Below are positions 26,176 to 60,823 of a stretch of DNA of 64,000 nucleotides, piece by piece; positions within the stretch are counted from its first letter, which is position 1; each line of letters opens with the position of its first letter. Made by a program: the position numbers and the translations under genes. Under the pieces are notes generated by a model. It saw nothing but the letters and a program-made list of their open reading frames with translations, had not been told where the DNA came from and made no database searches. Source of the stretch: Candidatus Krumholzibacteriota bacterium (lineage in GTDB: Bacteria > Krumholzibacteriota > Krumholzibacteriia > LZORAL124-64-63); assembly GCA_024277025.1 (NCBI GenBank), contig JAJRWA010000067.1, positions 504-64,503 of the forward strand. The letters are read 5' to 3'.

Positions 26176-26180
26176 GAACA

Positions 26181-29199: not shown

Positions 29200-29225
29200 C
29201 CGGCAGTGACCGAGAAAGGACGAGC

Positions 29226-31088
29226 GTGAGATTTGCCGCGGAAATCTGGCTGTGGTTTGTGCCCCTGGTGCCTCTGTTGTGGTGGGTGCTGCGCAGTGCC
29301 GACCAGTCAGCTGCCAGGCGCCTGATCCGTCTGCTCGGCGAGCAGGCCGAAGGCCATGTCGAACGGGCCAATCCGCGCCTGCGCTCGTGGCAGAGGTTCT
29401 TCTTTCTGGCCGGATTGTTCTGGCTGCTGCTGGCCCTGGCCCGTCCCCAGTGGGGGGCCCGGGAAGTGACCGTCACCCAGCAGGGGTCGGACATCGTGGT
29501 GGCTCTGGATATCTCCAATTCCATGTTGGCCGAGGACGTCGTGCCCAACCGGATGGAGCGGGCCAAATCGGAGCTGGGCAGTTTCCTGGATCGTCTGGAG
29601 AACAGCCGGGTGGGCCTGGTCTTTTTCGCCGGTGCGGCTTTTATCCAGTGCCCGCTGACACTCGACTACGGCACGGCCGATATCTTTCTCAAGATGGCGG
29701 GGCCGGACATGATGAGCGCCCAGGGTACGGATATCGGCGGCGCCCTGAAGGCCAGCCGCGAACTGCTGGCCAAGGGCAGTCCCGAGGGGCCGGATGGGAA
29801 TTTTCAGGCCATTCTGCTGGTTACCGATGGCGAAGATCTGGAAGGCGCCTGGCGCGAGGAAGCCGAGGCCTGCCGTGACAAGGGGATCCGCGTGATCCCG
29901 GTTGGCGTCGGCGAGGAAGGCGGCGGCTTGATCCCCGTGCAGGACAGCCAGGGCCGGCCGGCGGGTTTCCTGAAGGACGAAGAGGGCAACGTCGTGACCA
30001 CGCACATGGATCTGGCGAAACTGGAGGAACTGGCGGCAATCGGTGGCGGCAGCGCCTTCCGCCTGGGCGTGGATGGGCTGGCCGGTGACCGGCTGTTTGC
30101 CGAATTGAAGCGGTTGGGCCGCCGGGACCTGGAGGAGCGCCGGATATCAGCTTATCAGGAGCGATTCGTTTGGCCCTTGCTGATGGCTTTGGCGAGTTTT
30201 CTGTTGCGCATGCTGCTGCGGCCACGCGGCTCCGACCGGGCCAAGAGTTGGCGCCGGGCCGGTCTGGTGGGGGCCCTGGCGCTCTGGGGCGCGGTGGCCT
30301 GGTCGGGTTCAGCCGTGGCCGGGTTGGCCCCGCCCCAGTTGCGTGAAATGAACAAGGGGTTGGAACGCTATGAGTCCGGCCAATACGATGAAGCCCTGTC
30401 CGCGTTCGAGTCGGCCATGGTGCAGGCACCGGATGATCCGCGGATCGGGCTGGCGGTCGGCGAAACCTTGTTCCAGCTCGAGCGGTATGAAGAGGCGGCC
30501 AGGGAGTTCCAGCGGGTCCTGAGTCTGACGGATGACGAGGCTCTGCGCGCCGAAGCGCTGTACAACAAGGGGACGGCCCAACTGGCGGCCGGTGACGCGG
30601 CCAAGGCTGTCGCGGACTTGCGCCGGTCCCTGCAGGTTGATCCGCAGCAGAAGGACGCCCTGTTCAATCTTGAGGTGGCGTTGCAGCGTTTGAAGCAGCA
30701 GGAGCAGCAACAGCAACAGGAGCAGGAACAACAGCAAGAAGAGCAGAAGCAGGAAGAAAAGGACCAGCAGGAACAGCAGCAGCGACAGGATCAGCAGGAC
30801 CAGGAACAGAAGGACCAGGACCAGCAGGAGAATGAGCAGCAGGATCAACAGGAATCAGAGCAACAAGAGCAGCAGCCGCCAAAGGACCAGCAAGGCCAAC
30901 AGGCCGACCAGAACCAGGACCGGCAGGATGAATCGGCTGCGCCCGAGGATGACATTGATCCCAGGGAACTGACCAAGGAACAACAGGCTCAGATTCTCAA
31001 AGCCCTGGATCGCGACGAGGAAGAGCTGAAGCGTTCGGTACAGAAGCGCCTCAAGGGCGGCAAACCCAAGAGCGGGAAGAAATGGTGA
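29226..31088 (+). CDS. BatB-BatC fusion (vWA membrane protein fused to TPR repeats) with a Gln/Glu-rich low-complexity tail
   Basis: GTG start with AAAGGA RBS. TM helices plus vWA (DISNSM…TDGED). TPR units follow. A roughly 80-aa stretch of Q/E/D/K repeats spans about 30690-30930. Confidence 0.8.
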   Translation: MRFAAEIWLWFVPLVPLLWWVLRSADQSAARRLIRLLGEQAEGHVERANPRLRSWQRFFFLAGLFWLLLALARPQWGAREVTVTQQGSDIVVALDISNSMLAEDVVPNRMERAKSELGSFLDRLENSRVGLVFFAGAAFIQCPLTLDYGTADIFLKMAGPDMMSAQGTDIGGALKASRELLAKGSPEGPDGNFQAILLVTDGEDLEGAWREEAEACRDKGIRVIPVGVGEEGGGLIPVQDSQGRPAGFLKDEEGNVVTTHMDLAKLEELAAIGGGSAFRLGVDGLAGDRLFAELKRLGRRDLEERRISAYQERFVWPLLMALASFLLRMLLRPRGSDRAKSWRRAGLVGALALWGAVAWSGSAVAGLAPPQLREMNKGLERYESGQYDEALSAFESAMVQAPDDPRIGLAVGETLFQLERYEEAAREFQRVLSLTDDEALRAEALYNKGTAQLAAGDAAKAVADLRRSLQVDPQQKDALFNLEVALQRLKQQEQQQQQEQEQQQEEQKQEEKDQQEQQQRQDQQDQEQKDQDQQENEQQDQQESEQQEQQPPKDQQGQQADQNQDRQDESAAPEDDIDPRELTKEQQAQILKALDRDEEELKRSVQKRLKGGKPKSGKKW

Positions 31089-33754
31089 TGGCCAGGAAAC
31101 ATGTGTCAGCCGGCGGCAAGGGTTGCGAGTTTTCCGGGCCCGCAGGACGGGTCCTGGGGCTGGTTGTGGGCCTGTGGCTGTTGGCCCACCCGGTCATGGC
31201 TGCCATTGAGTGCGACGCTTCGGTCAACCGCACCAGCGTGCCGAGTGGAGGCGAGGTGATCCTGACCGTGACGGCCGCCGGGGATGTGGGCTGGTCGCCG
31301 GAATTCCAGTTACCCGATATGCCCGGGGTTCGGGTCTATGCCGGTGGCACAAACCAGAGCATGTCCGTCACCAACGGCCGCACCGAAACGACCGTTTCAC
31401 GGGTCTACTACCTCAAGATCGAAACAACTGCGGACTTCACGATCGGCCAGGTTTCCGTAACCTCGGGCAACAAGTCCTGCCGCACTGAGCCGATCGCCAT
31501 CAAAGTGACGCCAATGAACGGGGCCGGCACCCAGATTCCGCCGGCCAACAGCGGCAATCGTGTTCAGCGGCCGGGCGAGTCCCCCAACGGCGCGGTCAAC
31601 AGCGAGGCGGGCAAGGCCGGCGACAGCGTTTTTGTCACGCTGGAAGCGGACCATACTGAGGCCTGGGTCGGCCAGCAGATCGTCCTGACGTTCCGCTACT
31701 GGCGCCGGGTCCAACCGTGGAACAACCCGAACTTCACGCCGCCACGCACCGAAGGATTCTGGCGGGAGAACCTCGGCTCGGAGCGCAACTATCGGCAGGT
31801 GGTGAAGGGCCGGGCGTACACGGTGACCGAGATCCGTTACGCGGTTTTCCCCACCCGCATCGGGGATCTGGTTATCGAACCGGCCGAGCTCAACTTTCCC
31901 CGCGGCGCGTTCGACAGCTTCTTCCAGTCCCGGCGCAATCGGCGTGGGCCCAGCACGCTGCGCACCGATCCGGTCACCATTCACGTCAAGGAACTGCCCC
32001 AGCCCCAGCCGGCGGGCTACTCTGGCATCGTCGCTTCCCAGCTCAAGCTGATCAGTCAGGTTGACCGGGACACGATCCCGCGGGGCGAGGCCCTGGGCCT
32101 GAAGGTTCGCCTGGACTCTGACGGCTTCCTCAAGGGATTCAGCAACCTGGCGGTGCCGGTGCCGCCGAAGGTCAGGATGCACGACGCGGGCGAGAGTTTT
32201 CGCACGGGCGCTGAGGGGGGCAAGCTCAAGGGACACATTGTCGTCGAGAAGGTGATCGTACCGGACCAGGACGGTGAACTGCATCTGCCGCCGGTCGAGT
32301 TGGTTTGGTTTGACGTCAAGGCGGGTCGCTACCGGACTGCGCGTACGGCGGCCTGGGACGTGGTGGTTACCGCGAGTGATCTGCCGCTGGCCGGGGCGGA
32401 CGAATCGGGCTTCCTGCGCAGCGAGATTTCCCGCCTCGGCGAGGATCTGGCGTTCATCCACCCGGCGCCTGCTTCGTTGTCCCGGCGAACCGGTCCGCTG
32501 ACCGGCCGCGCCATCTGGTGGGGGCTGCTGATTCTGCCGGGCGTGCTGCTCGGCATGTTCCGCTTCTACCTGCGGCGCCTGGCTGCGGAACTGCGGGATC
32601 CAGCCGGCCGCCGGGCCCGTGGGGCACTGACTGCGGCCAGGAATTGTCTGGCCGCCCAGGAGGGTGACATGATGCCGGCGGTGGCGCGGGCGATTTGCGG
32701 CTACGTGGCCGACTGCCAGGATAGAACCTTCGCGTCGGTCGGCCCGGCCGCCGTTCTGGAATTCTGCGCTGGGCTGGGGGCGCCGGAAACTGGAGAGCGG
32801 CTGGTGGCGATTCTGGATGAATGTGACGCCGCCCGCTACGGCGGGTCCGGCCCCGAATCAGCGGCCCGGGTCGTCGAGGAGGTGGGTGGCTTGCTGGCAA
32901 CGCTGGATGCCGGACGGCGCTCGGCGCACCGCCGGCGCGGGACGTCGGCGGCCACGCTGGCCATCCTCGGTATCGCGCTGTGCCTGGCGGTGGCCCCGCT
33001 GCAAGCCGCGGACCAGGCCGAACGCCCCGGCACTGATCCGGTCAGGCTGCTCGCCGAGGGGAACCAGGCCTACACCGAGGGACGGCTGGACGACGCGCAG
33101 AGCCGGTATCTGGCGGCGCGGGACCGGGGTGTCAACGATCCGGTTCTGCATTTCAATCTGGGCAACACCTATGCCCGCACAGGGCACCTGGGCCAGGCCA
33201 TCGCCAGCTACCTGCGGGCGCAGCGGCTGGCCCCGCGCGACAAGGATGTCAGAAACAATCTGTTTTGGGTGCGGCGGCACATCCGGGATCTGGAACTGAG
33301 CGAGCACTCACTGCCGTTGTTCATTGCCCAACTGGCCGGGATAGTCGGCGCGTTGACTGTGGATCAGTGGGGAATCGGCTTGATAGCGCTGGCCTGGCTG
33401 GTGGCGGCCCTGATCGGCTGGGGCTGGTATCGCGATGACTTCAACCCGCGGTTGCGGCGCTTGTTGCTGACTGGCGGGGCGGCGCTGATTCTGGTGGCGG
33501 CCGTAACCGCCGGCCGCTGGTACGTCGAAGAGGTGCGTGATTCCGCGGTCGTCATCGTGCCGGAAGTCGAGGTCCGGTCCGGTCCGGCGACTTCGTTTTC
33601 GGCCCTGTTCAAGGTCCACGACGGTTTGACCCTGACCATTGATGAACGCCGCGCCGGCTGGGCCCGCGTGGGTCTGGGCGGCGACTGGGAGGGGTGGGTG
33701 CCCGAACCCAGTATCGAACCCGTCCGGCGAGCGGCCGGGGCTCAGGGCCGATAG
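31082..33754 (+). CDS. BatD-BatE fusion (oxygen-tolerance BatD domain, TPR, C-terminal SH3b)
   Basis: Overlapping ATGGTGATGG start. BatD-like N-terminal half. TPR units (…YLAARDRGVNDPVLHFNLGNTYARTGHLGQAIASYLRAQRLAP…). C-terminal SH3-like module (VEVRSGPATSFSALFKVHDGLTLTI…GWARV). Confidence 0.75.
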   Translation: MVMARKHVSAGGKGCEFSGPAGRVLGLVVGLWLLAHPVMAAIECDASVNRTSVPSGGEVILTVTAAGDVGWSPEFQLPDMPGVRVYAGGTNQSMSVTNGRTETTVSRVYYLKIETTADFTIGQVSVTSGNKSCRTEPIAIKVTPMNGAGTQIPPANSGNRVQRPGESPNGAVNSEAGKAGDSVFVTLEADHTEAWVGQQIVLTFRYWRRVQPWNNPNFTPPRTEGFWRENLGSERNYRQVVKGRAYTVTEIRYAVFPTRIGDLVIEPAELNFPRGAFDSFFQSRRNRRGPSTLRTDPVTIHVKELPQPQPAGYSGIVASQLKLISQVDRDTIPRGEALGLKVRLDSDGFLKGFSNLAVPVPPKVRMHDAGESFRTGAEGGKLKGHIVVEKVIVPDQDGELHLPPVELVWFDVKAGRYRTARTAAWDVVVTASDLPLAGADESGFLRSEISRLGEDLAFIHPAPASLSRRTGPLTGRAIWWGLLILPGVLLGMFRFYLRRLAAELRDPAGRRARGALTAARNCLAAQEGDMMPAVARAICGYVADCQDRTFASVGPAAVLEFCAGLGAPETGERLVAILDECDAARYGGSGPESAARVVEEVGGLLATLDAGRRSAHRRRGTSAATLAILGIALCLAVAPLQAADQAERPGTDPVRLLAEGNQAYTEGRLDDAQSRYLAARDRGVNDPVLHFNLGNTYARTGHLGQAIASYLRAQRLAPRDKDVRNNLFWVRRHIRDLELSEHSLPLFIAQLAGIVGALTVDQWGIGLIALAWLVAALIGWGWYRDDFNPRLRRLLLTGGAALILVAAVTAGRWYVEEVRDSAVVIVPEVEVRSGPATSFSALFKVHDGLTLTIDERRAGWARVGLGGDWEGWVPEPSIEPVRRAAGAQGR

Positions 33755-48801: not shown

Positions 48802-48884
48802 GGGGTGCCCGGTTGCGGGCAACCCGGCATCGACAACAATTACGGACAGGTCACCGGTCCACTTCCTCGCCGAGGGAACGGTTG

Positions 48885-50126
48885 ATGAGAGACAACTATA
48901 AGAATCAACGTAGATACGGCGCTGACCGTCAGGCGTTCGGGCGGGCCCTCGAGCCCGCCGCGTGGAGCCGCTTGGAGCAGGTCGGTGATCTCCATTTCCA
49001 TTCGTCTGCGTACTCGTCCGCCCTCGACTATTATGGCCAGTTACTCAACGAGGCGTCGCTCAATGTGGTTCCGTGTGAGCAGGCTTTCGGCGTTCTGCGC
49101 AAGGCCGTCGACTCGCATCTCCTGCTGGGGCATTTGAATCAGGCCACTGAGTTGCTGGATCTGGCATCCAGTCTGGTCAATCGCACGACTGGTTTGTCTG
49201 ACCCCGGCGAAAACGCTGTGCTCAACGCCACGTTCGATATCAGGCGAGCGACTGTTTTCCGCGAGCGCGGCCGGCTGCACGATGCGCTGAACCTGGCCAA
49301 ACGGGCTTTCTCGGTCCTGGCCCTGACGGATCAGCACGCTGATGTGGCACGGTTGCAGGTGGTGATGGGTGTTTGCCATGCCCGGCTCGGACGCGGGGTG
49401 AAGGCCGGCGAGTTCTTTGCCGATGGCTTGTCCACCTACCGCCGCATCGGCCACGACGAGGGCGTGGCCAATCTGCTGAACAACCTGGCTCTGCTGGAAA
49501 AGAACCAGTGCCACTGGGGCAAGGCGCTGGCGCAGATGGAGAAGGCCGTCGAGTTGGCCCACCGGATCGGGGCCAGTCATCTGTTGCCCGGCTTCTATCT
49601 CAATCAGGGAATCGTCCTGCAGAAGATCGACCGTCTCGGCGAGTCCCGTTCGTTGCTGGAAAAGGGATTGCGCCTGGCTGTCAGTCTTGGCGACCAGATC
49701 CATGAAACGCGCCTCAATCTGGCCATGGGGCGGCTTGAAACCCTCTCGGGGCGATTGGCGCGGGCCGAGACTTTGCTGCTCAGCGGCAAGACGCTAGCGG
49801 ATCAGAACCACTTTCTGCGGGAGGCCACCATCGCCGATGAGTATCTCGGTGATGTTCAACTCCTGCGGGGCGACGCGGACAAAGCACGTTTCAATTACCA
49901 GTTGGGATTGGAGAAATCCCGCTCGATCGCCGTGGGCAATGATCTCGAGGGCGAGTTGCAGCGGCGCGTGGGCGAGGCCCACCTGCTTTCCGGCCAACTG
50001 GATGAAGCGATTGCGGTCAGCCAGGCTGCCATTGCTGTCTGTGAGCAGTGCGGTGAAGAGTATGAGATCGGTTTCTGCCATCTGACCCTGGGCAAAGCCT
50101 ACGCGCGCCGGAATGACTGGCAGTAG
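48885..50126 (+). CDS. Cytoplasmic TPR-repeat protein; probably the N-terminal part of the downstream sigma54 activator (same frame, separated by one TAG)
   Basis: Multiple TPR-like units. The ORF ends with TAG at 50124-50126 in the middle of a TPR-like unit (…LGKAYARRNDWQ*SDHHFRQAIARFQDQ…). The downstream ORF is in the same frame. Confidence 0.55.
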   Translation: MRDNYKNQRRYGADRQAFGRALEPAAWSRLEQVGDLHFHSSAYSSALDYYGQLLNEASLNVVPCEQAFGVLRKAVDSHLLLGHLNQATELLDLASSLVNRTTGLSDPGENAVLNATFDIRRATVFRERGRLHDALNLAKRAFSVLALTDQHADVARLQVVMGVCHARLGRGVKAGEFFADGLSTYRRIGHDEGVANLLNNLALLEKNQCHWGKALAQMEKAVELAHRIGASHLLPGFYLNQGIVLQKIDRLGESRSLLEKGLRLAVSLGDQIHETRLNLAMGRLETLSGRLARAETLLLSGKTLADQNHFLREATIADEYLGDVQLLRGDADKARFNYQLGLEKSRSIAVGNDLEGELQRRVGEAHLLSGQLDEAIAVSQAAIAVCEQCGEEYEIGFCHLTLGKAYARRNDWQ

Positions 50127-50267
50127 AGCGATCATCACTTCCGCCAGGCAATCGCCAGATTCCAGGACCAGCGTCTGCAGCACCTGTGGTGCCGCGCGAT
50201 CCTCGAATTTGCCGACCACCGGCTGGAAAACGCAGCCGAGCCGGAACTGCTGCTCTTCAGGCGTTAT

Positions 50268-51992
50268 TTGATGGACGCCCAGGAAGATGGGGCCGCATCG
50301 GTCAGCGATCTGGTCCTGTGTCAGGTGCTGGAAAAGCTGGCCCAGGTCCAGATCCAGTTGGGGCAATTCGACGACGCGCTGCTGACCGTCTTTGAACTCG
50401 AACGCCATGCAACGGGTTGCGAGGACCCGACGCTGGACAACTCGGTTGTGGCCTTGCGCAATCAGATCGAAGCCGGCTTGCTCGGCGGCGTCAACGACAC
50501 CGAGTCCCATCTGCAGGCGATTTCGGGTCTGCCCGGCCTTTTTGCCCAGGGCGGGCCGGCTGTGCCGCGCAATCTGGGGTCCGTGTTGGCCGCAGGTATG
50601 GAGCGAGTGCAGGCGGACAGCGGCTTCATCGCCATGATCAGTCACGATGGCCGGGGTCTCGCGACACATATCGCGGCCCGCAAGGGATTGACCGAGAATC
50701 TGAGCGAGCAGCTCTCCGGTTGGTTTGACGGCGAGCTTTCCAGCGGACGTCGCTCGGGCACGTGTTTCTTTTCCCGGTTGGATCCGGCTGATGATATTGT
50801 CATGGCCGTGCCGGCACTCCTGAGCGTTGCCGACAGTTGTGTCTTCATGCCGATCGCGCTGCACGACCAGCGCTTTGGCCTGCTCTGCCTGGCCAAGTCC
50901 GGTGTCGGCGCCGGTGGTTCGGCCTTTGATCGGGCCAGCCTTGATTTCCTGGCGACCTATATGGGATTCCTGGCGCTCTTCCTCTATGAAAAGGGGCGCG
51001 GCGCCACTGACGAAACTGTGCATACTCCCTTCGAGCGGATCGAGAGCTTCGAGAACATCATCACCCAGAACAGCAAGATGCTTGATGTTCTGGGCCTGGC
51101 GCGCAAGGTGGCGCCCAGTGATTTGACGGTCTTGCTCAGCGGTGAGACCGGAACGGGCAAGGGTTTGCTGGCCTACTCGATCCACGCCTTGAGCAAGCGG
51201 GCTGGCCGGAAGTTCCTCTCCATCAATTGTGCGGCGATCCCCGAAGCGCTGCTGGAGTCCGAGCTGTTCGGCCACAAGCGCGGCAGCTTCACCGGGGCGC
51301 ACAGCGACAAGAAGGGGTTGCTGGCCGAGGCTGAAGGCGGCACCGTATTTCTTGATGAAGTAGGCAAGATGCCCTTCAGCATGCAGGGCAAGTTGCTGCA
51401 TTTCATGGACACCAAGATTGTGCGCCCGGTCGGCGGCAACGTCGAAGTGCCGGTGGATGTGCGGATTGTTTGTGCTTCCAAGGCCGATTTGCATCAGATG
51501 GCCATGGAGGGGAAGTTCCTCGAGGATCTCTATTACCGGCTGCTGGATTTCCCGCTGGTGATGCCGCCGTTGCGCGAGCGTCCCGATGATGTCGAGTTGC
51601 TGACCCGGCATTTCGTCGAACGCTTCAGTATGGAGTTGGCTGGCGAGGTGCCGGCTCTGGATCGGGGTTTCCTGGATTGTCTGGTGCAGCACAGCTGGCC
51701 GGGTAATGTGCGGGAATTGGAGAAGACGCTGCGGCGGGCCATTGTGCTGGCCCAGGGTGATGGTGTTTTGCGTCCCGAGCATTTGCCGGAGCAGATTGCC
51801 GGCACGCCGGATGCGGTGCCCAGTGGTGAGGTGGCCCCGTTGAAGGAGACTTTGGCCGGTATCGAGTGCCGTGAGATCAGGCGCGCTCTCGAGATTTCCG
51901 GTGGCAACAAGTCCCAGGCTTCCCGGGTGTTGAAGATCAGCTATCCGAATCTGTTGAAAAAGATCCGTCACTACGGGATCGTGAAGGACTGA
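50268..51992 (+). CDS. Sigma54-dependent transcriptional activator with a GAF sensor domain (NifA-like: GAF + AAA+ + HTH)
   Basis: GAF region (…MISHDGRGL…HDQRFGLLCL…). AAA+ Walker A GETGTGKG. ESELFGHKRGSFTGA (GAFTGA motif). C-terminal Fis-type HTH. The true N-terminus is probably upstream (see the in-frame TAG). Confidence 0.8.
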   Translation: MMDAQEDGAASVSDLVLCQVLEKLAQVQIQLGQFDDALLTVFELERHATGCEDPTLDNSVVALRNQIEAGLLGGVNDTESHLQAISGLPGLFAQGGPAVPRNLGSVLAAGMERVQADSGFIAMISHDGRGLATHIAARKGLTENLSEQLSGWFDGELSSGRRSGTCFFSRLDPADDIVMAVPALLSVADSCVFMPIALHDQRFGLLCLAKSGVGAGGSAFDRASLDFLATYMGFLALFLYEKGRGATDETVHTPFERIESFENIITQNSKMLDVLGLARKVAPSDLTVLLSGETGTGKGLLAYSIHALSKRAGRKFLSINCAAIPEALLESELFGHKRGSFTGAHSDKKGLLAEAEGGTVFLDEVGKMPFSMQGKLLHFMDTKIVRPVGGNVEVPVDVRIVCASKADLHQMAMEGKFLEDLYYRLLDFPLVMPPLRERPDDVELLTRHFVERFSMELAGEVPALDRGFLDCLVQHSWPGNVRELEKTLRRAIVLAQGDGVLRPEHLPEQIAGTPDAVPSGEVAPLKETLAGIECREIRRALEISGGNKSQASRVLKISYPNLLKKIRHYGIVKD

Positions 51993-52097: not shown

Positions 52098-52227
52098 GGA
52101 ATACCTGTTAATAAAGTTAATAGTAAATTGAGACAGTGGTGATTGCTGGCGTCTTTCAGTTGAACGGGTTGCCTTGTAAGTCGGTATTATGAAGCCTGTT
52201 ATAGAAATTCCAGCCGTTTTGGTCAAG

Positions 52228-52244
52228 TTGGTACGGGCCCTGCT
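52228..52244 (+). promoter_or_regulatory. Candidate sigma54 promoter (-24 TGGTAC / -12 CTGC) inside the low-GC intergenic island
   Basis: TTGGTACGggccCTGCTT has a 10-nt spacing between GG and GC as in TGGCAC-N5-TTGC, and the same -12 CTGC variant as the strong promoter at 52895. Confidence 0.35.
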
Positions 52245-52255
52245 TATGCAGGAGC

Positions 52256-52590
52256 GAAGGGGCGAGTTACAGGGAACCTCTTCGAACTTGATTGATCTTT
52301 GACATTCGTGTTTTCGGGAGAGGCGAGGTTGTTTCCCTCATTTTGCTTACCGGCATGGGGGGAAGTTCTCAACAAGAAGGTTGTCAAAAGGATTGTGAAG
52401 AGGTGGGGTCTGATCAGTCGTTTTTTGGCGGCGAGAGAGAATCTGCAACCTTTTCTCCCGAAACACGAATTTCAAGGAACACTCAGGACATACAGTTCTG
52501 GATCTCTCACCGGAGATCATAAAAAGAGCCCTTACTGATCTTGAAAAGGCGAGATTCAAGGTCAGGCTGCCGCAAGGCGGGGCTCTTTTT
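52256..52590 (+). ncRNA. Candidate structured small RNA (about 300 nt), unknown family, defined by promoter, long closing helix and terminator
   Basis: Low-GC (about 47%) non-coding stretch. 5' arm ATTCGTGTTTTCGGGAGAG-gcg-AGGTTG (52304-52331) pairs with CAACCT-ttt-TCTCCCGAAACACGAAT (52446-52470). Internal hairpins. The 3' end at 52521-52590 is AAAAAGAGCCC…GGGGCTCTTTTT with an inner CCGCaagGCGG hairpin. The ORFs here have atypical low-GC codon usage. Confidence 0.3.
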
Positions 52591-52894
52591 CCATGCCTGG
52601 AACTCAGGCCGCCCGGGCCGTGAAACCAGGGAATCACCAGGCTTTGTTCCGTCTCTTTTTGGATAATCTGTCCTGCAATTCACACAGCCACCAGCGAAAA
52701 AAGGACAGCCAGGATCCGGTCGATGGTGACGCGCGACCGCTTGCTGCCGGCAGGTGTTGGCGTGTGCAGTGACGCCTGGAGTTTTCCAACATGCGTAATT
52801 GTAGCGAGTTAGCTGGTTGCTGGCCCGTGGCCGTCGGCTATGGTCTCCCGTAGTTCTGATCTGACTGAACCATGACTGCCGGCTCGACCGAGGG

Positions 52895-52909
52895 TGGCAC
52901 AAAGTCTGC
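52895..52909 (+). promoter_or_regulatory. Strong sigma54 promoter TGGCAC-N5-CTGC about 45 nt upstream of the lipoprotein gene
   Basis: agggTGGCACaaagtCTGCg: the -24 element is perfect, the -12 element is CTGC, and spacing is canonical. Predicted TSS is about 52921. Confidence 0.5.
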
Positions 52910-52951: not shown

Positions 52952-54019
52952 ATGAGCAAAGCCAATGAACTCCGAAGGGCGAACGATACGCGACTCAGGA
53001 CGGCCTCCGTGTGGGCCGTTCCCGCGGGCGGTTTCGGAGCGAAATTGACGAGCAGGCTTCTGGTGGCCCTGGTCTTGTCCTTGCTGGTGGCGTTGGCCGG
53101 TTGCGAGTCCGACGAGGACTGTATCAACTGCGTCGACTTGCCGCCTCCTGTCGTACCCACGGGTGTGCACAGTATCAGTGGCAACAATGAAGTGATTGTC
53201 CAGTGGATCGACATCGCCTACGCCCCTTACGACGACAGCTACAACGAAAACGTAACCACCTATTTCATCTACAGCCGATTCTACGAGAACGGCGATGAGT
53301 TTGATCCGGACCGCGAATTCTTCTTCATCGGTGAAGTGGCCTGGAACGAGAACTATGACGGCAGCACCGGGCTGCACTGGTTCTATGACACCGAAGCGGT
53401 CAACGGCGAGCAGTACGAATACGCCGTGGCCGCCGTCAATGCCGCTGGACGGCAGAGTGCCCTGAGTTTCGAATTTGTCGCCGATGCGCCGTTGCCGATG
53501 AGTCCGCTCGACGGGCAGGGCTGGTTCCTGCCCGTCGAGGTCTTCGATGGCAACGGTCCGAGTGTCAATCTCTCGGCCTTCAATTTCCGCACGGCAGGAT
53601 TGAATCCGACGGTGCTGACCGCGGGCCGCGTCAGCCCGGCCGCCCCTCACCATATCAGGATCAGTATCGAGGGCGGTATTGCCTACGCGCTGGCCGAGGT
53701 CGCGTCCACGAGGATTCAGGACTTCGGCTCGTTCAGTGACGGCAACGGCAATGTGATCTTCGAGGGCGTTTCGTGGGCGCCGGCTGAGGGGTATTCGCGC
53801 ACCGGCAGGCTGGAACTGGTTGAAGGCCATGTCTATGTCGCGGAAATCATCGATCCGGTGACCAGCGAGTTGCATTACGCCAAGTTCGGCATCAACGCGA
53901 TCAACGCCGGTTCGGTCGAGCTCATCTGGGCCTACCAGCTGATTCCCGGGTTGCCGGAACTCAAAATGCCGAACCCGGGCGGCGATCCCGGGGTCAAGCC
54001 GCAAGTGATAAAGCTCTAG
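52952..54019 (+). CDS. Lipoprotein with a fibronectin-III/Ig-like beta-sandwich region (hypothetical)
   Basis: GACAGGAGG RBS. Signal peptide plus lipobox LAGC. FN3-like segment (…EYAVAAVNAAGRQS…). Confidence 0.6.
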   Translation: MSKANELRRANDTRLRTASVWAVPAGGFGAKLTSRLLVALVLSLLVALAGCESDEDCINCVDLPPPVVPTGVHSISGNNEVIVQWIDIAYAPYDDSYNENVTTYFIYSRFYENGDEFDPDREFFFIGEVAWNENYDGSTGLHWFYDTEAVNGEQYEYAVAAVNAAGRQSALSFEFVADAPLPMSPLDGQGWFLPVEVFDGNGPSVNLSAFNFRTAGLNPTVLTAGRVSPAAPHHIRISIEGGIAYALAEVASTRIQDFGSFSDGNGNVIFEGVSWAPAEGYSRTGRLELVEGHVYVAEIIDPVTSELHYAKFGINAINAGSVELIWAYQLIPGLPELKMPNPGGDPGVKPQVIKL

Positions 54020-54064: not shown

Positions 54065-56029
54065 ATGACCCGCACATCGAATTACAACCCGACACTGAAC
54101 TCCCTGAGGAATCGGGGAGGGATGGGCTTCGCGCTGGCTGCCGTTTGGGCTCTCCTGTTCACCATTGCGCCGGGACCTGCCCGGGGCCAGGATTACGAAG
54201 TGGGCGGCCGCAGTGACTATCAGGCGGAAAAGACAGTGGCTGACTACACGAGCCAGGCCCAGCAGGCCGCTGGTAACGACTTCGACTACCAGGCCAACCC
54301 CTTGCGGGTCGAGGTCTGGGTCGACAAGCCCGCCGGCGAGGTCTATCGCAAGGGCGAGGAGATCCGGGTGGGCGTGCAGACCAACGAAGACGCCTACGCT
54401 GTCGTGTACCGAATTGATTCCGAGGGCCTGGTGACGATTCTCTGGCCCCGGAGCCGCTTCGACGACGGCTTCCTCTTTGGTGGCCATGAGTATTCCCTGC
54501 CGGTGACGGGCGGGCGCAGCCTGCGGGTGTCGACGCAGGAAGGGGAGGGTATTGTTGAAGCGATCGTCTCGCGCTATCCCTTCGACCTGCGGGCCCTGGA
54601 ACTGGATTTTCATCACGAGAGCACGAACGAGCGCTACGATTTTGCGGTGGCCGGTGACCCTTTCCTGGCCATGAACGAGGTCAACTATGCGGTGACCGGG
54701 CTGGAGGATTCGGCGGAATTCGTGGTGACCAATTATGTCAGCTACTATGTCCACCAGCAGGTGGATCATCCGCGCTACCTGTGCAGTCAGTGCCATATCG
54801 ACGATGGTCTGGCGACTGATCCCTACGGGGAGACCTGCACGCTGGACATCCAGTACGACTACTCCTGGTACAACAGCTGGTACGACCGCTACGGTTACTA
54901 TCCCGTCTACGGCAATCCGGTCTATGTGTATATCGATCCCTGGACCTACAACCCCTGGGTCAACTACTGGTACACGCCCTACTACAGCAGCGCGCCGTGG
55001 TACGGCTGGGGCTGGGGCTGGGGCGTGTCCTACATCTGGGGCTATTCGCCCTACTACTGGGGCAACAGCGTGACGGCCTACAACAGTGGCTACCAGCGCT
55101 ATCGTCCGCTGGACCGGTCGGGACTGGACGGCGGCCGCGGCGGTTCGGTGACCAAGACCAGGGAGTATTCGCGTGGCTCGGAAATGGTGCGCAAGAGTGG
55201 GCCTTCCGAGAGTGAACGCGGTTCGATGAAAGCACGTACCCGAACGGACAGAAGCTCCCGGGACCGGACGACGGTTGCCGGCCGCAGCACCGGTGGCCGG
55301 GATCCGAATTACCGGGGTGCGCCGGCCGAATCCCGTTCGCGGGGCTCCGCAGGCCAGGTGGCCACGACCGGGCGCAGCCAGAGCGGATTGCGAATTCGTG
55401 AGAGCGGGCGTGGCTCCGGCACGACGAGAACGCGGACGTCGGCCACGACGACGTCACGCCGGCATACGGCGGCCGGTGAAGGCCGGCGCGCTGGACTCGT
55501 GCCCGTGAGCCGGGGATCCTCTTTTGACAATGAAACCTGGCGGGGCACCAGCCGGGTCGGTGGTCGCAGCACCACGACAGTCGGCCGCAGCGGCCGGACA
55601 GGATCGGGCTCCGGCCGCAGCAACAGCCCGGCCGCCTCGGCCAACAACCGCACCCGAAGTTCGAGTGGCGGGAAGGCCGTGCAGCCGCGGAAACGCAGCA
55701 CCCGGGTGTGGAACGCGACCGGCAGCCGCTCCGGCTCGAGTCAGAACTCGCGGCGGTCCCGGTCCAGTGCGGTGAACAACCGCAGTACCGGCGGCCGCAG
55801 CGGCAACAGTGCCACGAGCGTCAAGCGCACGAGATCTTCGGGCAGCAAGTCGAGCGGTGGCAAGTCGTCCGGTGGCCGGTCCAGTGGTGTCAAACGCAGT
55901 GGCGGGTCCCGGGGCGGCAGCAGCGCCGGACGCACAGGCGGTGGCTCCCGGGGCGGCAGTTCCGGCGGTGGCCGGTCGTCAGGCGGTTCCCGGAGTTCCG
56001 GCGGCCGCAGCAGTTCGTCACGTCGCTAG
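54065..56029 (+). CDS. Exported DUF4384-domain protein with an aromatic (W/Y)-rich segment and an Arg/Ser/Gly/Thr-rich disordered C-terminal tail of about 300 aa
   Basis: AAGGAGAG RBS. Signal peptide. DUF4384-like block (…VWVDKPAGEVYRKGEEIRVGVQTNEDAYAVVYRIDSEGLVTILWP…). CSQCH motif. A 90-aa stretch at about 40% W+Y. Tail made of RS, SG and RT repeats ending …GGRSSGGSRSSGGRSSSSRR. 45-nt gap to the upstream lipoprotein gene, so they are probably an operon. Confidence 0.7.
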   Translation: MTRTSNYNPTLNSLRNRGGMGFALAAVWALLFTIAPGPARGQDYEVGGRSDYQAEKTVADYTSQAQQAAGNDFDYQANPLRVEVWVDKPAGEVYRKGEEIRVGVQTNEDAYAVVYRIDSEGLVTILWPRSRFDDGFLFGGHEYSLPVTGGRSLRVSTQEGEGIVEAIVSRYPFDLRALELDFHHESTNERYDFAVAGDPFLAMNEVNYAVTGLEDSAEFVVTNYVSYYVHQQVDHPRYLCSQCHIDDGLATDPYGETCTLDIQYDYSWYNSWYDRYGYYPVYGNPVYVYIDPWTYNPWVNYWYTPYYSSAPWYGWGWGWGVSYIWGYSPYYWGNSVTAYNSGYQRYRPLDRSGLDGGRGGSVTKTREYSRGSEMVRKSGPSESERGSMKARTRTDRSSRDRTTVAGRSTGGRDPNYRGAPAESRSRGSAGQVATTGRSQSGLRIRESGRGSGTTRTRTSATTTSRRHTAAGEGRRAGLVPVSRGSSFDNETWRGTSRVGGRSTTTVGRSGRTGSGSGRSNSPAASANNRTRSSSGGKAVQPRKRSTRVWNATGSRSGSSQNSRRSRSSAVNNRSTGGRSGNSATSVKRTRSSGSKSSGGKSSGGRSSGVKRSGGSRGGSSAGRTGGGSRGGSSGGGRSSGGSRSSGGRSSSSRR

Positions 56030-56252: not shown

Positions 56253-56281
56253 TTGACCGGGCTGCGGGCCCTGCCTATAAT
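56253..56281 (+). promoter_or_regulatory. Near-consensus sigma70 promoter TTGACC-N17-TATAAT upstream of the large CTD-bearing cargo gene
   Basis: -35 TTGACC at 56253-56258, -10 TATAAT at 56276-56281. Confidence 0.5.
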
Positions 56282-56349: not shown

Positions 56350-59300
56350 ATGCGCATTATTCCCTTCGCCCTTTGGTTTAGCCTTGTTGCTGTCCACGGC
56401 GCGGTTCCTGCCACCGCCGGGACACCGGTGGTCTACGGGGCGGATGCTGCCGGTACCGCAGCGGTTGCCGGGCTGCAGGAACTCCTACGGGCGCAATCGG
56501 CCCCGCTGCGGGCTGATGCCGCGCGCGGTCGCCAGGCCAGTCGTCTGGCTGGCGAGAGGGCCCCCGACACGCTGAATGCCCTGGTCATGATGTGCGACTT
56601 CAGCGACAGTTTGATGCTCGGCCGTTACGGCCAGGTGCCGGGTGATTTCCCGCCGCCGATGCAGACCGATCGTCACTACGCCGCCCACGATTCGGTCTAC
56701 TTCGACCATATGTTGAGCAAGGTGTCCGACTACTTCACCACGGTCAGTGGTTCCCGGCTCACGATCAACTACACCATTCATCCCCGCACGATCAATCTGC
56801 CGCAACCCATGTGGTTCTATGGCAATCATCCGCAGGAAGGCGAGCAGACCATGCTGCTGGCCGCTCAGGTGGTCGACAGTCTGGGCACCGAGATCGACCT
56901 GTCCTTGTACGACACTTTTGTGCTGATGCACGCCGGTGCGGGTGAAGAAACCGACATCCTGGGCAACAGCCCCGAACAGATCTTCAGTACCTATCTCGAT
57001 CCGGACGATTTTGCGGCCGCAGTCGAGGACAGCATTCTGGAGCAGCCGTACCTGCCGGCGCCCGGTTTCCCGGCGGGAACCGGAATCGACCGTGTTCTGG
57101 TCCTGCCGGAGACGGAGCAGCAGGATCCGGTCGGGGGCTTCGGGGGCGGCTTTGGCAGCCTGGGTGTCTACTGCTTCGAGTTTGGGCTGCATCTGGGCAT
57201 GCTTTCGCTGAGCGATTTTACGCCTTCGGGTCGGCCGGACAGCCAGGGCATCGGCCAGTATGGCCTGATGGGGTACGGGCTGTTCGTCGGGCTGGGCTTC
57301 ATTCCGCCGCACCCCTGCGCCTACAACAAACTGCTGATGGGTTGGCTGGATCCCTACGAGGCCGACGCCCGGAGCGGCGGCACGTATAGGCTGACGCCGT
57401 CCGAGGCACCGAACCAGCCGTTGGCCTGCGCCCGGGTGAATCTCACCGGCCAGGAGTTCTGGCTGCTGGAATACCGCCTGCAGGATCCCAACGGGGATCG
57501 GCGCTATACATTCGGCGACGACAAGAACGGCAATGGGCTGCCTGATTTCTACGACATGGATTCCACTGTGGGTGGCGGCATTCCCACCGGCAAGTTCGAC
57601 GCGGCCACCGATTCCCTGGAGCGGGTCATCGAGGCCGAGTGGGACTTTGCCATGAGCGAGAACAGCGCGCGCGTCCTGGGCGAGTTGGGCTGGGGGAGCG
57701 GCGTCTATGTGTGGCACATCGACGAGGGCGTGATTGCGAGCGTGATTGATGCGCCGCGCAATCTCTTCAACGCCGACGCCGGGCGCAAGTCGGTGGACCT
57801 GGAAGAGGCCGACGGGATTCAGGACCTGGACTCCAACGAACCGTCGGCGTATATGCTGGGCGGCGATGATGACAGCTTTCGCGGCGAGTTCACGGCGGAT
57901 TTCACGCCGTCGACGCGCCCGAATACCGGAACCTCGAGCGGGGCCTACAGCGGAGTCGCCTTCAGGAATTTCAGCAATGTGGTGACCGACTCCTTCGTGG
58001 CGCCGCTGTACACCGATCCGGAGACCGGGATCACCTACTGGGCCTTCGAGTACGCTGATACCATGTCCTTTGATCTTCAGATTGAAACAGCTGCGGCCGG
58101 TGCGCCGGTGCTGCACGCGCGCCGGGATCTGGCGCCCGGAACGGACTTGCGCGGGTCCCATGTCCTGGTGGGCGATCTGGACCAACTGGGGGGCACTGAC
58201 GAGATCATTCTGGCCGGACATGCAGGCGAGGTTTTTGTGCTGGACGGGAATCTGGATGAATTCCTGGACCACGACGGTGATGCGGCCACCCTGGAGCCAT
58301 TCGTGGTCGGCACGCGCGGCGGGGCGCCGGTGGTGTGGAACCTGCCGCCGGCCCTGGGCGACATCGATGGCGATGGCGAGCCGGAAATCCTGCTGACCGG
58401 GGCCGGAGGGTTGTTCGCCTTCAAGCGGGACGGAACCGCAGTGCGCAACCCGGAACCGGGATCTTTCGGGCTCTATGCGGATGTCCCCGGCTGCGAATTG
58501 CCGCCGGTTCTGCTGGCCGATTCGCGATTCAGCCCAGAGGCGGATCCGGGTGCGAGGGTGCAGGCACTGGTCATGGAGCAGGGGCCGGGCGGCGCCCGAC
58601 TGTTGTTCCTGCGCGGGGCTGATGCCACGGAGATAGCCGCGGTAGACCTGGGTGACGGGGTCGTCAGGTCGGTGCCGCTGGCCCTGGATGACTATGTTGT
58701 GGTGGCCGTGGCCGATACCAGTGGGGCGAACAACCGCCTGGTGATCCTGGAGCGTACGGCGGATATTCTGCCGGCGATTCCATCCCGCCTGGACCTGGCT
58801 TTGTCCGGGATGCCCGGGCGGTTGCCGCTGCTGGCTGGTATCGCCCCCGGCAGTGATCCGGCCCAACCACTCTTTTTTGTGACCGTAATCGATACGGCCG
58901 GGCGTGGTGAGACCGTCTTCTTCGATAACAACCTGGTGGCGGCACGGGAGCCCAGCCTGTGGCCGGTCGACCTGGTGGTTGCAGCCCCTCTCGGTCTGGG
59001 CGGCGCCTTTGTGGGCCAGGATGTTCTGGGGCGGGTCGGCAACGGTGGCCATTGGCTGACCGGGTGGCCGCGACGGCCGCTGCAGGGCGACCTGGCCGGT
59101 GATTCACGGTGGCAGGGGCAGCCTCTGGTGGCCCAACTTGTTGGTTCGGTCCAGAATCTGGACCAGTTTATTTTTCCGACGCGGGATGGGCGCCTGTTCG
59201 CCACCGGCGGGCAGGGCGATGATGAGCCGGGCTGGCCGCTGGCCGGGCCGGCGGTCTCGGCCGGTACGCCGGCCTTTGGGCAACTGGTTGGCTCACCCGA

Positions 59301-59799
59301 TGCTGATCTGGTGACGACCGGGACCTTTGACCGGATCACCGGTACTGACGGGGCAGCGGGACTTGCCACCGAACCGGTGGCCACGGTGGCGGTCTGGCGT
59401 GATCTCGCGGTTGCGCAGCCTATCTGGCCGATGCATGGTGGGTCGGTCTGGCGCAACGGGTCTTTTGACCTGGCGGTCTGGCAGCCCGGCGGGGCTGTTG
59501 CACCGGGCACAGGCCTGGTGTCCGGCAGCCACTTCTGCTTCCCGAGTCCCCTGGAAGAGGGCCCGCTGCAGGTGAGCGGCAAGGTCCGCAGTCCGGCACG
59601 GGTCAAAGTCGTGGTGTATAATCTTGAAGGGGAAGAGGTGGGGCAAACCGGTTGGCAGGCGGTCGGCCCGGTTGAACCTTTCATTGTTGGTATTGACTTG
59701 CCGGGGGCGGTAACGGGGCTTTACCTGTGCCGTCTGGTGGTCGATACCCCGGGAGTCGGAACGGAGAACAGTGTGACTCAGTTCGCGATTGTCCACTGA
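56350..59799 (+). CDS. Large secreted protein (1149 aa): M6 (InhA)-like N-terminal region without a canonical HEXXH, FG-GAP/VCBS-type repeats, and a C-terminal T9SS/FlgD-Ig-type sorting domain
   Basis: Signal peptide. M6-domain-like N-terminal 450 aa, but the expected HEYGHDLG position reads CFEFGLHLGM. FG-GAP-like repeats (GDLDQLGGTDEIILAG…, GDIDGDGEPEILLTG…). C-terminal …TGLYLCRLVVDTPGVGTENSVTQFAIVH beta-sandwich tail. Confidence 0.7.
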   Translation: MRIIPFALWFSLVAVHGAVPATAGTPVVYGADAAGTAAVAGLQELLRAQSAPLRADAARGRQASRLAGERAPDTLNALVMMCDFSDSLMLGRYGQVPGDFPPPMQTDRHYAAHDSVYFDHMLSKVSDYFTTVSGSRLTINYTIHPRTINLPQPMWFYGNHPQEGEQTMLLAAQVVDSLGTEIDLSLYDTFVLMHAGAGEETDILGNSPEQIFSTYLDPDDFAAAVEDSILEQPYLPAPGFPAGTGIDRVLVLPETEQQDPVGGFGGGFGSLGVYCFEFGLHLGMLSLSDFTPSGRPDSQGIGQYGLMGYGLFVGLGFIPPHPCAYNKLLMGWLDPYEADARSGGTYRLTPSEAPNQPLACARVNLTGQEFWLLEYRLQDPNGDRRYTFGDDKNGNGLPDFYDMDSTVGGGIPTGKFDAATDSLERVIEAEWDFAMSENSARVLGELGWGSGVYVWHIDEGVIASVIDAPRNLFNADAGRKSVDLEEADGIQDLDSNEPSAYMLGGDDDSFRGEFTADFTPSTRPNTGTSSGAYSGVAFRNFSNVVTDSFVAPLYTDPETGITYWAFEYADTMSFDLQIETAAAGAPVLHARRDLAPGTDLRGSHVLVGDLDQLGGTDEIILAGHAGEVFVLDGNLDEFLDHDGDAATLEPFVVGTRGGAPVVWNLPPALGDIDGDGEPEILLTGAGGLFAFKRDGTAVRNPEPGSFGLYADVPGCELPPVLLADSRFSPEADPGARVQALVMEQGPGGARLLFLRGADATEIAAVDLGDGVVRSVPLALDDYVVVAVADTSGANNRLVILERTADILPAIPSRLDLALSGMPGRLPLLAGIAPGSDPAQPLFFVTVIDTAGRGETVFFDNNLVAAREPSLWPVDLVVAAPLGLGGAFVGQDVLGRVGNGGHWLTGWPRRPLQGDLAGDSRWQGQPLVAQLVGSVQNLDQFIFPTRDGRLFATGGQGDDEPGWPLAGPAVSAGTPAFGQLVGSPDADLVTTGTFDRITGTDGAAGLATEPVATVAVWRDLAVAQPIWPMHGGSVWRNGSFDLAVWQPGGAVAPGTGLVSGSHFCFPSPLEEGPLQVSGKVRSPARVKVVVYNLEGEEVGQTGWQAVGPVEPFIVGIDLPGAVTGLYLCRLVVDTPGVGTENSVTQFAIVH

Positions 59800-59884
59800 T
59801 GGGGATCGCGTGACAGGCTATAATAGGCGGCAAGATGACCGGGGCCTCCGGGGCCGTGGTCGGCACAACACGGAAAGGGATTCC

Positions 59885-60823
59885 ATGGTTCGCAAGAACA
59901 AGACGACGGCGGGAGCGCTGGTGGCAGCGATGCTCCTGACGGTGGCCCTGGCACCATTGGCTCAGGCAGCGGAACCGGGCGAGTCCGGCTTGCTCTCTTT
60001 GCGCATCGGGGTCGGCGGGCGCGAGGCGGGAATGGGCGAGGCCGGAGTGGCCAGCAGTCACGGGGCGGCGGCGATCTACTGGAATCCGGCCAACAATGTT
60101 TTTGGCGACCTGGAGACCGAACTGGTCCTGCAGCACGACCGCTATCTCGGCCTGTTCAATCAAGAGGCTGCGGCCGTGGCCCATCGGGTTGGGCGAGGAG
60201 TCGTCGGGTTTATCTTTACCGGGCTCTATTCCGATGCGATTGACCGGCGCAGCCAGGACAATACGGGTATTCCCGAGGGATCCTTCAAGCCGTACGATGT
60301 GGCTTTTGGCGTGAGCTATGCCCATCCGCTGGGTGAGAGCTTCGGGCTGGGGATGAATGCGAAGATGGTCTATCAGCGCATTGATATCTATTCCGACACC
60401 GGCTTCGCCTTCGATTTCTTCGTCAGCCACAAGGCCGTTGTCGAAGGGCTGATGTTTGGCGCGAGTGTGACCAATCTGGGCGGGCAGATGAATCTGAAGA
60501 ACGATGCGTTCAATCTGCCGACGGCGTTTCGGATCGGTGCCTCGTGGAGCCCGGAGCACGACGATGGCCTGGGCCGGCTGACGCTTACCGGCGATGTGGT
60601 GATGCCCAACGATGCCAACAACAAGGCCCACGCGGGCGCCGAATACCGCCTGCTGCCCGAATTCTCGCTGCGCGTGGGCACGCGTATCAACTATGAGAAT
60701 CAGGGGCTGACTGCCGGTGCGGGTTTCCGGACCGGAGTCTTGGGCGTTGACTACGCCTACGGTGAATCGACTGTCGACGGCATTGACGACGGGCACAAGT
60801 TCGCGCTGAATCTGGTGTGGTAG
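59885..60823 (+). CDS. FadL/PorV-superfamily outer-membrane beta-barrel (T9SS PorV/UPF0164-like)
   Basis: Signal peptide (…LAPLAQA). N-terminal G-x-x-G-M-G-x-A-x-x-A…WNPA motif (REAGMGEAGVASSHGAAAIYWNPANN). C-terminal aromatic residue (…ALNLVW). Confidence 0.6.
   Translation: MVRKNKTTAGALVAAMLLTVALAPLAQAAEPGESGLLSLRIGVGGREAGMGEAGVASSHGAAAIYWNPANNVFGDLETELVLQHDRYLGLFNQEAAAVAHRVGRGVVGFIFTGLYSDAIDRRSQDNTGIPEGSFKPYDVAFGVSYAHPLGESFGLGMNAKMVYQRIDIYSDTGFAFDFFVSHKAVVEGLMFGASVTNLGGQMNLKNDAFNLPTAFRIGASWSPEHDDGLGRLTLTGDVVMPNDANNKAHAGAEYRLLPEFSLRVGTRINYENQGLTAGAGFRTGVLGVDYAYGESTVDGIDDGHKFALNLVW

Follow-up and report, generated by a model that had tools for sequence, protein, structure and literature searches.

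The window analyzed here is a stretch of 64,000 nucleotides (nt) from a Candidatus Krumholzibacteriota bacterium (assembly GCA_024277025.1, contig JAJRWA010000067.1, positions 504 to 64,503 of the forward strand), and the gene under study lies at 54065..56029 on its plus strand. Its 654-amino acid (aa) product begins with a predicted signal peptide, which is followed by a DUF4384 domain, a CxxCH motif, a segment dense in tyrosine and tryptophan, and a polycationic tail. An initial annotation made from the sequence had given this order of domains, and all of them can be located, DUF4384 with Pfam, the motif as CSQCH, and the aromatic block and the basic tail by residue counts. We find that the gene is real and intact, and that its product is an ordinary, typical member of a large uncharacterized family. 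The features of the gene are as follows.

54065..56029, + strand: open reading frame (ORF) of 654 aa with an ATG start, the exported DUF4384 / CxxCH / aromatic / polycationic-tail gene
54065..54187, + strand: putative Sec-type signal peptide, aa 1-41, predicted cleavage between ARG and Q, read from the sequence and from an A.AQ pattern in the family consensus
54305..54784, + strand: immunoglobulin (Ig)-like beta-sandwich with a helix/strand extension, aa 81-240, predicted by AlphaFold at a local confidence (pLDDT) of 90-98
54341..54577, + strand: Pfam DUF4384 (PF14326) core, aa 93-171
54767..54838, + strand: H235-P-R-Y-L-C240-S-Q-C243-H244 ... D-P253-Y254 ... C258, candidate haem c or metal site, from alignments
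54854..55063, + strand: Tyr/Trp/Pro-rich block, aa 264-333, from composition and alignment
55064..56026, + strand: polycationic disordered tail, aa 334-654 (321 aa), from composition, family alignment, and AlphaFold
55154..55168, + strand: tail island KTREY, from the family alignment
55385..55399, + strand: tail island GLRIR, from the family alignment
55460..55477, + strand: tail island RHtAGG (RHxAGG), from the family alignment
55679..55714, + strand: tail island of the IKPVEPRxkGTRxWN type with the invariant Trp W549, from the family alignment

Authenticity of the gene and its family

A protein identical to the product is present in the public collection (P0001), and a protein search with the 654-aa sequence returned 241 homologues at E<=1e-3, the top 120 of which are mostly 560-683 aa long with 75-99% query coverage. 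Strong conservation extends over the first ~345 residues across 115 of the homologues, and the full-length homologues are drawn from independent NCBI, JGI, ENA, and Logan assemblies. One important consideration is that the tail could have been a mis-assembled repeat or a spurious frame, as the GC content along its DNA reaches 0.72 and long chance ORFs arise in GC-rich DNA. A repeat check for assembly collapse had been set beforehand, and in the tail DNA TRF detects three tiny tandem arrays and nothing more. In the tail region only frame 0 is open, with 2-6 stops in each of the other five frames, and the GC content at third codon positions is 0.76 in the tail versus 0.80 in the head, with similar values in the neighbouring genes. 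The reading frame, a tail length of 294±18 aa, the invariant W549, and a terminal RR are all retained across independent assemblies. Because the frame, the tail length, and the in-frame motifs are kept across more than 240 homologues, the gene is genuine, and collapse is ruled out; the artefact explanation retains practically no plausibility, and we dropped it as refuted by the conservation data.

The N-terminus reads as a putative Sec signal peptide, with canonical n-, h-, and c-regions: a basic n-region and a 16-residue hydrophobic core precede A-x-G/A-x-A and then Q, and the cleavage site is kept as 'a.aq' (A-x-A before Q) in the family consensus, and the claim that the protein is exported agrees with this reading. 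The PF14326 match (E=1.7e-12, 47.7 bits versus a gathering cutoff of 27) covers profile positions 1-80 of 81, and the Pfam scan found no other domain in the 654-aa protein; the NCBIfam scan of the same protein gave no match. AlphaFold was run with an alignment of 82 sequences and then on the head alone with 116 more diverse sequences. A Foldseek search of the head against the PDB found generic beta-sandwiches alone, none at E<=1e-3, and a PDB sequence search gave no match. The net charge of the head is -25 in the query and about -21 across the family.

A phmmer search with the head against 1.84 billion representatives returned 1,151 sequences at E<=1e-3, including 366 at E<=1e-10. The distant members (30-40% identity, 400-650 aa) combine a signal peptide, DUF4384, a PRYxCxxCH...DPY...C pattern, an aromatic-rich stretch, and a disordered tail, and one distant branch of the superfamily is found in Gemmatimonadota. 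The family is present in every sampled Krumholzibacteriota genome, and its members are annotated throughout as 'DUF4384 domain-containing' or hypothetical, so that homology leads to no known, characterized family. The papers found to mention DUF4384 do not describe this architecture, and as far as the searched literature shows, the full architecture, the site formed by three cysteines and a histidine (Cys3-His), and the fixed gene cassette described below are undescribed. Other PF14326 proteins, in which the domain serves as a module on bacterial Ser/Thr kinases, orthocaspases, and OmpA-type anchors, share the domain and an exported context with the query family, which adds the CxxCH...C site, the aromatic/Pro block, and a polycationic tail of 200-350 aa. 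An informative relative with a paralogous architecture is P0154, which has three DUF4384 domains and, in place of the tail, a C-terminal OmpA peptidoglycan-binding domain that would place its DUF4384 modules beside the cell wall.

The Cys3-His site and the aromatic block

The CXXCH-like motif noted initially is the CSQCH at aa 240-244, and it is invariant in the 82-sequence family alignment, in which C240, C243, H244, C258, P236-R237, D198-P199, and P253-Y254 are invariant or nearly so. In a 116-sequence superfamily alignment, for which the distant members were selected for having CxxCH, the invariant positions are G121, P128, G160, D198, P199, C240, C243, H244, P253, Y254, and C258. Apart from a few glycines and prolines, the Cys3-His set together with D198-P199 and P253-Y254 therefore comprises the only superfamily-invariant side chains. 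Among 139 additional superfamily representatives that an exhaustive search yielded, 116 have CxxCH with a third cysteine 11-20 residues further on; of the 23 that lack CxxCH, six have CxxC minus the following histidine and roughly 10 are short fragments. The full-length exceptions never lose the histidine by itself, and exactly two cysteines are left in them, either as CxxC[Y/D/E] variants without C258 or with C240 and C258, or C243 and C258, retained. Since the histidine is lost together with exactly one cysteine, the four residues appear to act as one unit that degenerates to a disulfide, and we read this coupled loss as a signature indicating a single cofactor or metal site. The query contains exactly three cysteines, most relatives carrying two or three more, and because this count is odd, disulfides alone cannot satisfy the cysteines of the query. 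The site possibly binds haem c, which is our leading candidate for its ligand. Monohaem c-type cytochromes, which are exported CXXCH proteins matured by Ccm/Ccs, are a natural comparison: the query family has a predicted export signal and an invariant CXXCH whose histidine is never lost independently, and the presence of c-type cytochromes in the phylum adds to the likeness. They differ from the query family in that there is no sequence or fold match and in that the only other invariant candidate ligand here is a cysteine; neither an invariant Met nor a second invariant His that could be the distal ligand is found in the superfamily alignment. A Krumholzibacteria metagenome-assembled genome is reported to encode OmcS- and Cyc2-like cytochromes as well as cox/cbb3 oxidases (PMC7914226). 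Elsewhere in the window, a small ORF at 4709..5263 on the plus strand has a signal-peptide-like segment, a CLACH motif, and a Temptin_C match, and its product is a possible exported c-type haem protein, which is a hint that the organism may mature c-type cytochromes.

Immediately after the site comes the aromatic block, for which ~90 aa at ~40% Trp+Tyr had been proposed; the densest part is the 70 residues of aa 264-333, with 20 Tyr and 11 Trp (44%) and 10% Pro, close enough to that description. The block is not of low complexity, as W272, Y282, P285, Y289, D291, P292, W293, W298, W302, P305, and W325 are invariant in the 82-sequence family alignment and are set in short 'Asx-Pro-aromatic' units, and YxY-type motifs (YDY, VYVYI, YWY) are numerous. 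AlphaFold fails to fold it in spite of a deep alignment (pLDDT <50). The 10% Pro and the invariant residues, Pro and Asp among them, make a simple amyloid core less likely and favour a segment that may need a cofactor, a partner, or self-association.

These two elements suggest the possibility of a redox protein, in which the CxxCH would bind haem c, C258 would be either the distal ligand or a redox-active thiol, and the Tyr/Trp block would act as a hopping relay for electrons or holes or as a substrate for haem-catalysed Tyr-Tyr cross-linking, the outcome by analogy being an extensin-like, oxidatively cross-linked, basic envelope scaffold. We regard this as possible though unlikely. It is favoured by the invariance of CxxCH in an exported protein, by the coupling of the histidine to all three cysteines and the odd number of the latter, by the abundance of YxY-type motifs in a block that is unable to fold alone, and by the c-type cytochromes reported in the phylum (PMC7914226), to which the second, putatively exported CLACH protein in the window can be added. 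However, no similarity to a cytochrome family or fold was found in Pfam, NCBIfam, the PDB, or by Foldseek, and the conserved distal Met or second His is missing.

The polycationic tail

The tail is composed of 23% Ser, 19% Gly, 18% Arg, and 10% Thr, and with 67 Lys+Arg against 14 Asp+Glu it bears a net charge of +53 over its 321 aa, a basic residue occurring about every five positions. Its strong positive charge, proposed at the outset for ~300 residues, is thus evident, and in the last 174 aa there are 36 Lys+Arg against two Asp+Glu. Net charge averages about +40 in the tails of 115 homologues. The pLDDT is below 50 everywhere except at aa 365-390 and 465-480, and the query ends in ..SRR, the terminal RR being found in 37 of 60 homologues.

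Other parts of the initial description of the tail do not hold. What had been taken for RS/SG/RT repeats is compositional, with no true repeats beyond the three short arrays found by TRF, and the RS and SR dipeptides number 35 versus 26.6±4.2 in composition-preserving shuffles. Because these dipeptides are barely enriched and the longest alternating RS run is four residues, the tail is an S/G/R/T polycation and not a eukaryote-type RS domain; the proposed equation with eukaryotic RS domains fails also because the protein lacks an RRM and has a predicted export signal. Nor is such a tail very unusual, as had been suggested, for in the superfamily all 94 of the 94 representatives with a tail of at least 100 aa have a net-positive tail, ~88% of it disorder-promoting.

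The Ser/Arg/Lys-rich regions of the Bacillus spore-coat proteins CotG and CotB belong to the mother cell, and the RS domains of SR proteins are nuclear. Both resemble the tail in being Ser/Arg-rich, basic, and disordered, but here there are no RS runs, no RRM, and no nearby kinase, and Sec export is predicted. The periplasm-spanning disordered linkers of TonB, TolA, and LpoB are also comparable, being long, low-complexity, charged extracytoplasmic segments of conserved length on a folded module, and so are plant extensins, which are basic, Ser-rich, Tyr cross-linked wall scaffolds with YxY motifs. With neither group is there homology, the tail being rich in S/G/R/T and not in Pro, and no membrane anchor or energy-transducing partner is evident.

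The initial annotation had speculated about a role in an extracellular matrix, with an amyloid-like or adhesive aromatic block and a basic tail for binding extracellular DNA or polyanions, which amounts to a biofilm matrix protein secreted beyond the cell. The strongly polycationic tail and an aromatic block that is beta-prone and not foldable as a monomer would both fit this role, and sigma-54 regulons, such as the one described below, often govern the cell exterior. We nevertheless consider it improbable: the protein has no secretion signal beyond Sec, curli- or Fap-type export genes (CsgG/FapF) were found neither as families in the protein nor among its neighbours, the Pro content and invariant Pro/Asp residues of the block are unlike those of amyloid cores, and there are neither RS dipeptide runs nor nucleic-acid-binding domains.

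The gene cassette, its regulation, and its proposed role

The gene is single-copy, and across 78 species-representative genomes, almost all of which carry the label Krumholzibacteriota, the surrounding genes follow one fixed order as far as each contig extends: a TPR-GAF sigma-54 activator, a gap of ~0.9-1 kb that contains an RNA element, a lipoprotein gene, the DUF4384 gene, an M6-like gene, and a PorV/PorQ barrel gene, beyond which lie a metallophosphoesterase on the opposite strand, a small ORF, and HtrA. The features of the cassette in the window are as follows.

48813..51992, + strand: TPR-GAF-AAA+-HTH sigma-54 enhancer-binding protein gene, identified with Pfam and interrupted by an in-frame TAG
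52227..52599, + strand: uncatalogued structured RNA of ~335 nt, from covariation and conservation
52229..52243, + strand: sigma-54-type promoter of the RNA, TGGTACGGGCCCTGC, a conserved motif
52567..52590, + strand: intrinsic terminator of the RNA, from sequence
52895..52909, + strand: sigma-54 -24/-12 promoter TGGCACAAAGTCTGC, of the form TGGCAC-N5-cTGC
52952..54019, + strand: acidic fn3-type lipoprotein gene, likely start ATG 52952 after GGAGG; lipobox LAG before C, then DCINC
56253..56281, + strand: sigma-70-like promoter TTGACC-17-TATAAT, located ahead of the M6-like gene in a spacer of 320 nt
56350..59799, + strand: M6-like pseudo-protease gene, 1149 aa (NF052323, TIGR03296)
57175..57192, + strand: FEFGLHLG in place of the zinc-binding HExxH, from sequence comparison
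59789..60823, + strand: PorV/PorQ-family outer-membrane beta-barrel gene (NF033709)

The lipoprotein has a net charge of -24 and a conserved lipobox, and its gene lies upstream of the DUF4384 gene in 73 of 79 loci; two distant relatives, L080 and L081, have it there as well. The mature lipoprotein starts (~53100..53135) with C-ESDED-C-IN-C, and the acidic DC[ILV]NC, a CxxC that follows the lipid-anchor cysteine, is kept in those relatives that are closest to the window, whereas the deeper branches lack it. With the CxxCH of the DUF4384 protein, both proteins of the bicistron thus bear a CxxC.

The initial annotation held that the gene is sigma-54-driven and co-transcribed with a lipoprotein. 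The promoter is indeed conserved, even though the count of sigma-54-like motifs across the window is not above chance: TGGCAC-N5-nTGC agrees with nine of the 10 specified bases in 58 of 68 loci and with eight of them in the other loci, almost always at the same position. It sits upstream of the lipoprotein gene, however, and not directly before the DUF4384 gene, as had been implied. Co-transcription agrees in silico with a median spacer of 30 nt between the two genes behind this promoter, and they most likely form a sigma-54-dependent bicistron. For the M6-like gene, TTGAC[CG]-17/18-TATAAT matches at 10-11 of 12 positions in 39 of 65 loci, in a spacer of ~300 nt, and because of this conserved sigma-70-like promoter the M6-like and barrel genes are most likely a separately promoted pair.

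In 59 of 60 complete related loci the activator gene reads through as one uninterrupted frame of 1020-1095 codons, and in the window a TAG at 50124..50126 splits it into ORFs at 48813..50126 and 50127/50268..51992. Possible explanations are a nonsense mutation, a gene split in two, and an error in the sequencing; a genuine TAG could silence the operon in this organism. The region from the RNA terminator to the operon promoter also contains a 37-nt island (52650..52686) with up to 94% identity across species, and within it a TGT-N10-ACA dyad at 52669..52684, ~210 nt upstream of the -24/-12 element, which is a plausible candidate for the site of the enhancer-binding protein.

The sequence at 52227..52599 is a structured RNA supported by covariation. 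Its consensus structure has 71 pairs, 96.4% of them paired, and double-sided changes occur at 26 of the 71 pairs versus 11.7±2.2 in shuffled controls (none of 500 reaches 26) and 6-15 in slid controls. The element has no conserved reading frame, its indels not being multiples of three, and it has no match in Rfam; 55 of 67 related loci carry one full-length copy of it, on the same strand. It contains an invariant GUUACAGGGAWCC loop, which we take to resemble the CsrA-binding consensus and thus to be a candidate for such a site. In the distant cassette L080 (31% identity), which consists of an activator, a gap, a lipoprotein, the DUF4384 gene, and a barrel directly after it, the stretch at 660..1600 has two sigma-54-type elements, at 963 and 1527, and a strong terminator at 1316..1366, ~370 nt after the first; the sequence of this unit is unrelated to that of the window RNA. 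The design of an activator, a sigma-54-promoted RNA, and a sigma-54-promoted lipoprotein operon would therefore be older than the RNA sequence itself. An activator gene that stands beside a sigma-54-promoted RNA recalls CbrB, which drives the small RNA CrcZ (PMC6296734).

The M6-like protein, which has a net charge of -83, matches TIGR03296, and it also matches NF052323 ('T9SS-dependent M6-like inactivated metalloprotease') with E=5e-52 and 177 bits over aa 111-545 alone, below the 600-bit equivalog cutoff. As ~70 homologues carry FE[VF]GL[RH]LG and none carries HExxH, its sequence identifies it as a conserved pseudo-protease. The barrel gene, found in 58 loci, exceeds the cutoff of NF033709 (158.4 bits versus 90) and falls short of both equivalogs (PorV 76.6 of 250, PorQ 78.9 of 220). 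L080 has no M6-like gene, so the older core in that branch would be the lipoprotein, the DUF4384 protein, and the barrel. In Porphyromonas gingivalis, the barrels PorV and PorQ keep PorU and PorZ attached at the cell surface (PMC5562754, PMC10947112), and the present locus resembles that attachment complex in encoding a PorV/PorQ-family barrel beside a large, beta-propeller-like surface protein, here the M6-like protein. It differs in that the barrel scores below the PorV/PorQ equivalogs, the neighbour is neither PorU nor PorZ, and nothing in the described complex corresponds to the DUF4384 protein or the fn3 lipoprotein.

The comparison suggests an accessory role akin to that of a type IX secretion system (T9SS), in which the tail or its motifs might be gripped by the M6-like pseudo-protease and/or threaded into the PorV/PorQ-type barrel, and the protein would by analogy anchor or regulate a surface complex such as PorU-PorV or PorZ-PorQ. 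In every locus of sufficient length the M6-like and barrel genes adjoin the DUF4384 gene in a fixed way (the barrel alone in L080), the pseudo-protease has kept a peptide-binding scaffold without HExxH, and the tail islands occur specifically in the clade with the cassette. The role is doubtful, however, since a conserved sigma-70-like promoter serves the pair separately, the 64-kb window contains no further T9SS core genes, the sorting region of the M6-like protein is matched weakly, and standalone relatives have the tail without M6-like or barrel partners.

We favour, with a probability of about 0.38, an inducible scaffold that is periplasmic or associated with the outer membrane and whose tail tethers it electrostatically to anionic components of the envelope. 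We base this on the conserved architecture, the fixed synteny, the conserved sigma-54 promoter, the acidic partners, and the OmpA-anchored relative P0154. A signal would lead the activator to switch on the lipoprotein and the DUF4384 protein; the head would carry a cofactor at the Cys3-His site, most likely covalent haem c or else a metal ion, and would dock with the lipoprotein at the outer-membrane barrel complex; and the tail, as a flexible tether or spacer, would bind electrostatically to peptidoglycan, lipopolysaccharide, an exopolymer, or the very acidic partner proteins. The mechanism that we infer builds on the observed anatomy, conservation, gene context, and promoters.

Several observations weigh against the scaffold as we propose it. 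At the Cys3-His site there is no Pfam or NCBIfam match to cytochrome or metal-binding families, the AlphaFold confidence drops to a pLDDT of ~65 at the CxxCH, and no Ccm/Ccs cytochrome-maturation genes lie within the 64-kb window. A T9SS sorting domain is lacking from the protein (no Pfam/NCBIfam match to type A/B C-terminal domains), whose C-terminus is of S/G/R low complexity and ends in RR, and in the M6-like protein the C-terminal sorting region is a weak match (E=0.24) that does not verify such a domain. The Gemmatimonadota relatives are standalone genes, so the barrel and the lipoprotein are not obligatory for the superfamily. Finally, the charges of -83 (M6-like), -24 (lipoprotein), and -25 (head) are set against +53 in the tail, but the charge co-variation between tail and partners (rho -0.54) is equalled by a cytoplasmic control protein (-0.58), and because of this an electrostatic partnership is unproven.

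A bolder combination, which we count as a long shot, is that covalent haem c with an unusual His/Cys ligation would define a new class of exported haem proteins that act on their own Tyr/Trp segment, as a redox relay or in Tyr cross-linking, while the tail would weave the product into the anionic envelope as an inducible extensin-like scaffold and the sigma-54 activator would also drive the ~335-nt RNA. Such a class, if real, would be widespread, its more than 1,000 clusters of sequences coming from Krumholzibacteriota, from Gemmatimonadota, and possibly from other phyla.

If the favoured scaffold reading is true, the protein would be a phylum-wide envelope component with no prior function, structure, or literature, in 78 species of a candidate phylum without a cultured representative. 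Exported bacterial proteins rarely combine a conserved candidate site for haem or metal with a segment of 44% Tyr/Trp and a disordered polycationic tail of ~300 residues, and how highly charged disordered regions are exported and used in the periplasm is poorly understood. With one TPR-GAF sigma-54 activator ahead of two conserved sigma-54 promoters, that of the RNA and that of the bicistron, the locus would also be a clean regulatory model. Should the Cys3-His site be no more than a structural disulfide or a zinc site, and the tail no more than a passive spacer, what remains is a well-described but ordinary DUF family. The gene is moderately surprising, but neither unique nor mechanistically resolved.

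Two further loci in the window were recorded. A 607-aa protein encoded at 16783..18606 on the minus strand has weak N-terminal matches to sucrose-6-phosphate hydrolase and beta-fructosidase (glycoside-hydrolase-like), far below cutoff, and an FlgD_ig C-terminus that also matches the C-terminal ends of the PorU sortase and M6i profiles, and it is likely a T9SS-type cargo. A MoxR-DUF58-VWA-BatD (Bat-type) operon lies at 24802..33754 on the plus strand, ~20 kb upstream of the DUF4384 gene, and in the Gemmatimonadota locus L082 (4871..7786) a relative of that gene directly adjoins BatA/DUF58 genes; the proximity of Bat-type genes in the window and in L082 may be a coincidence.

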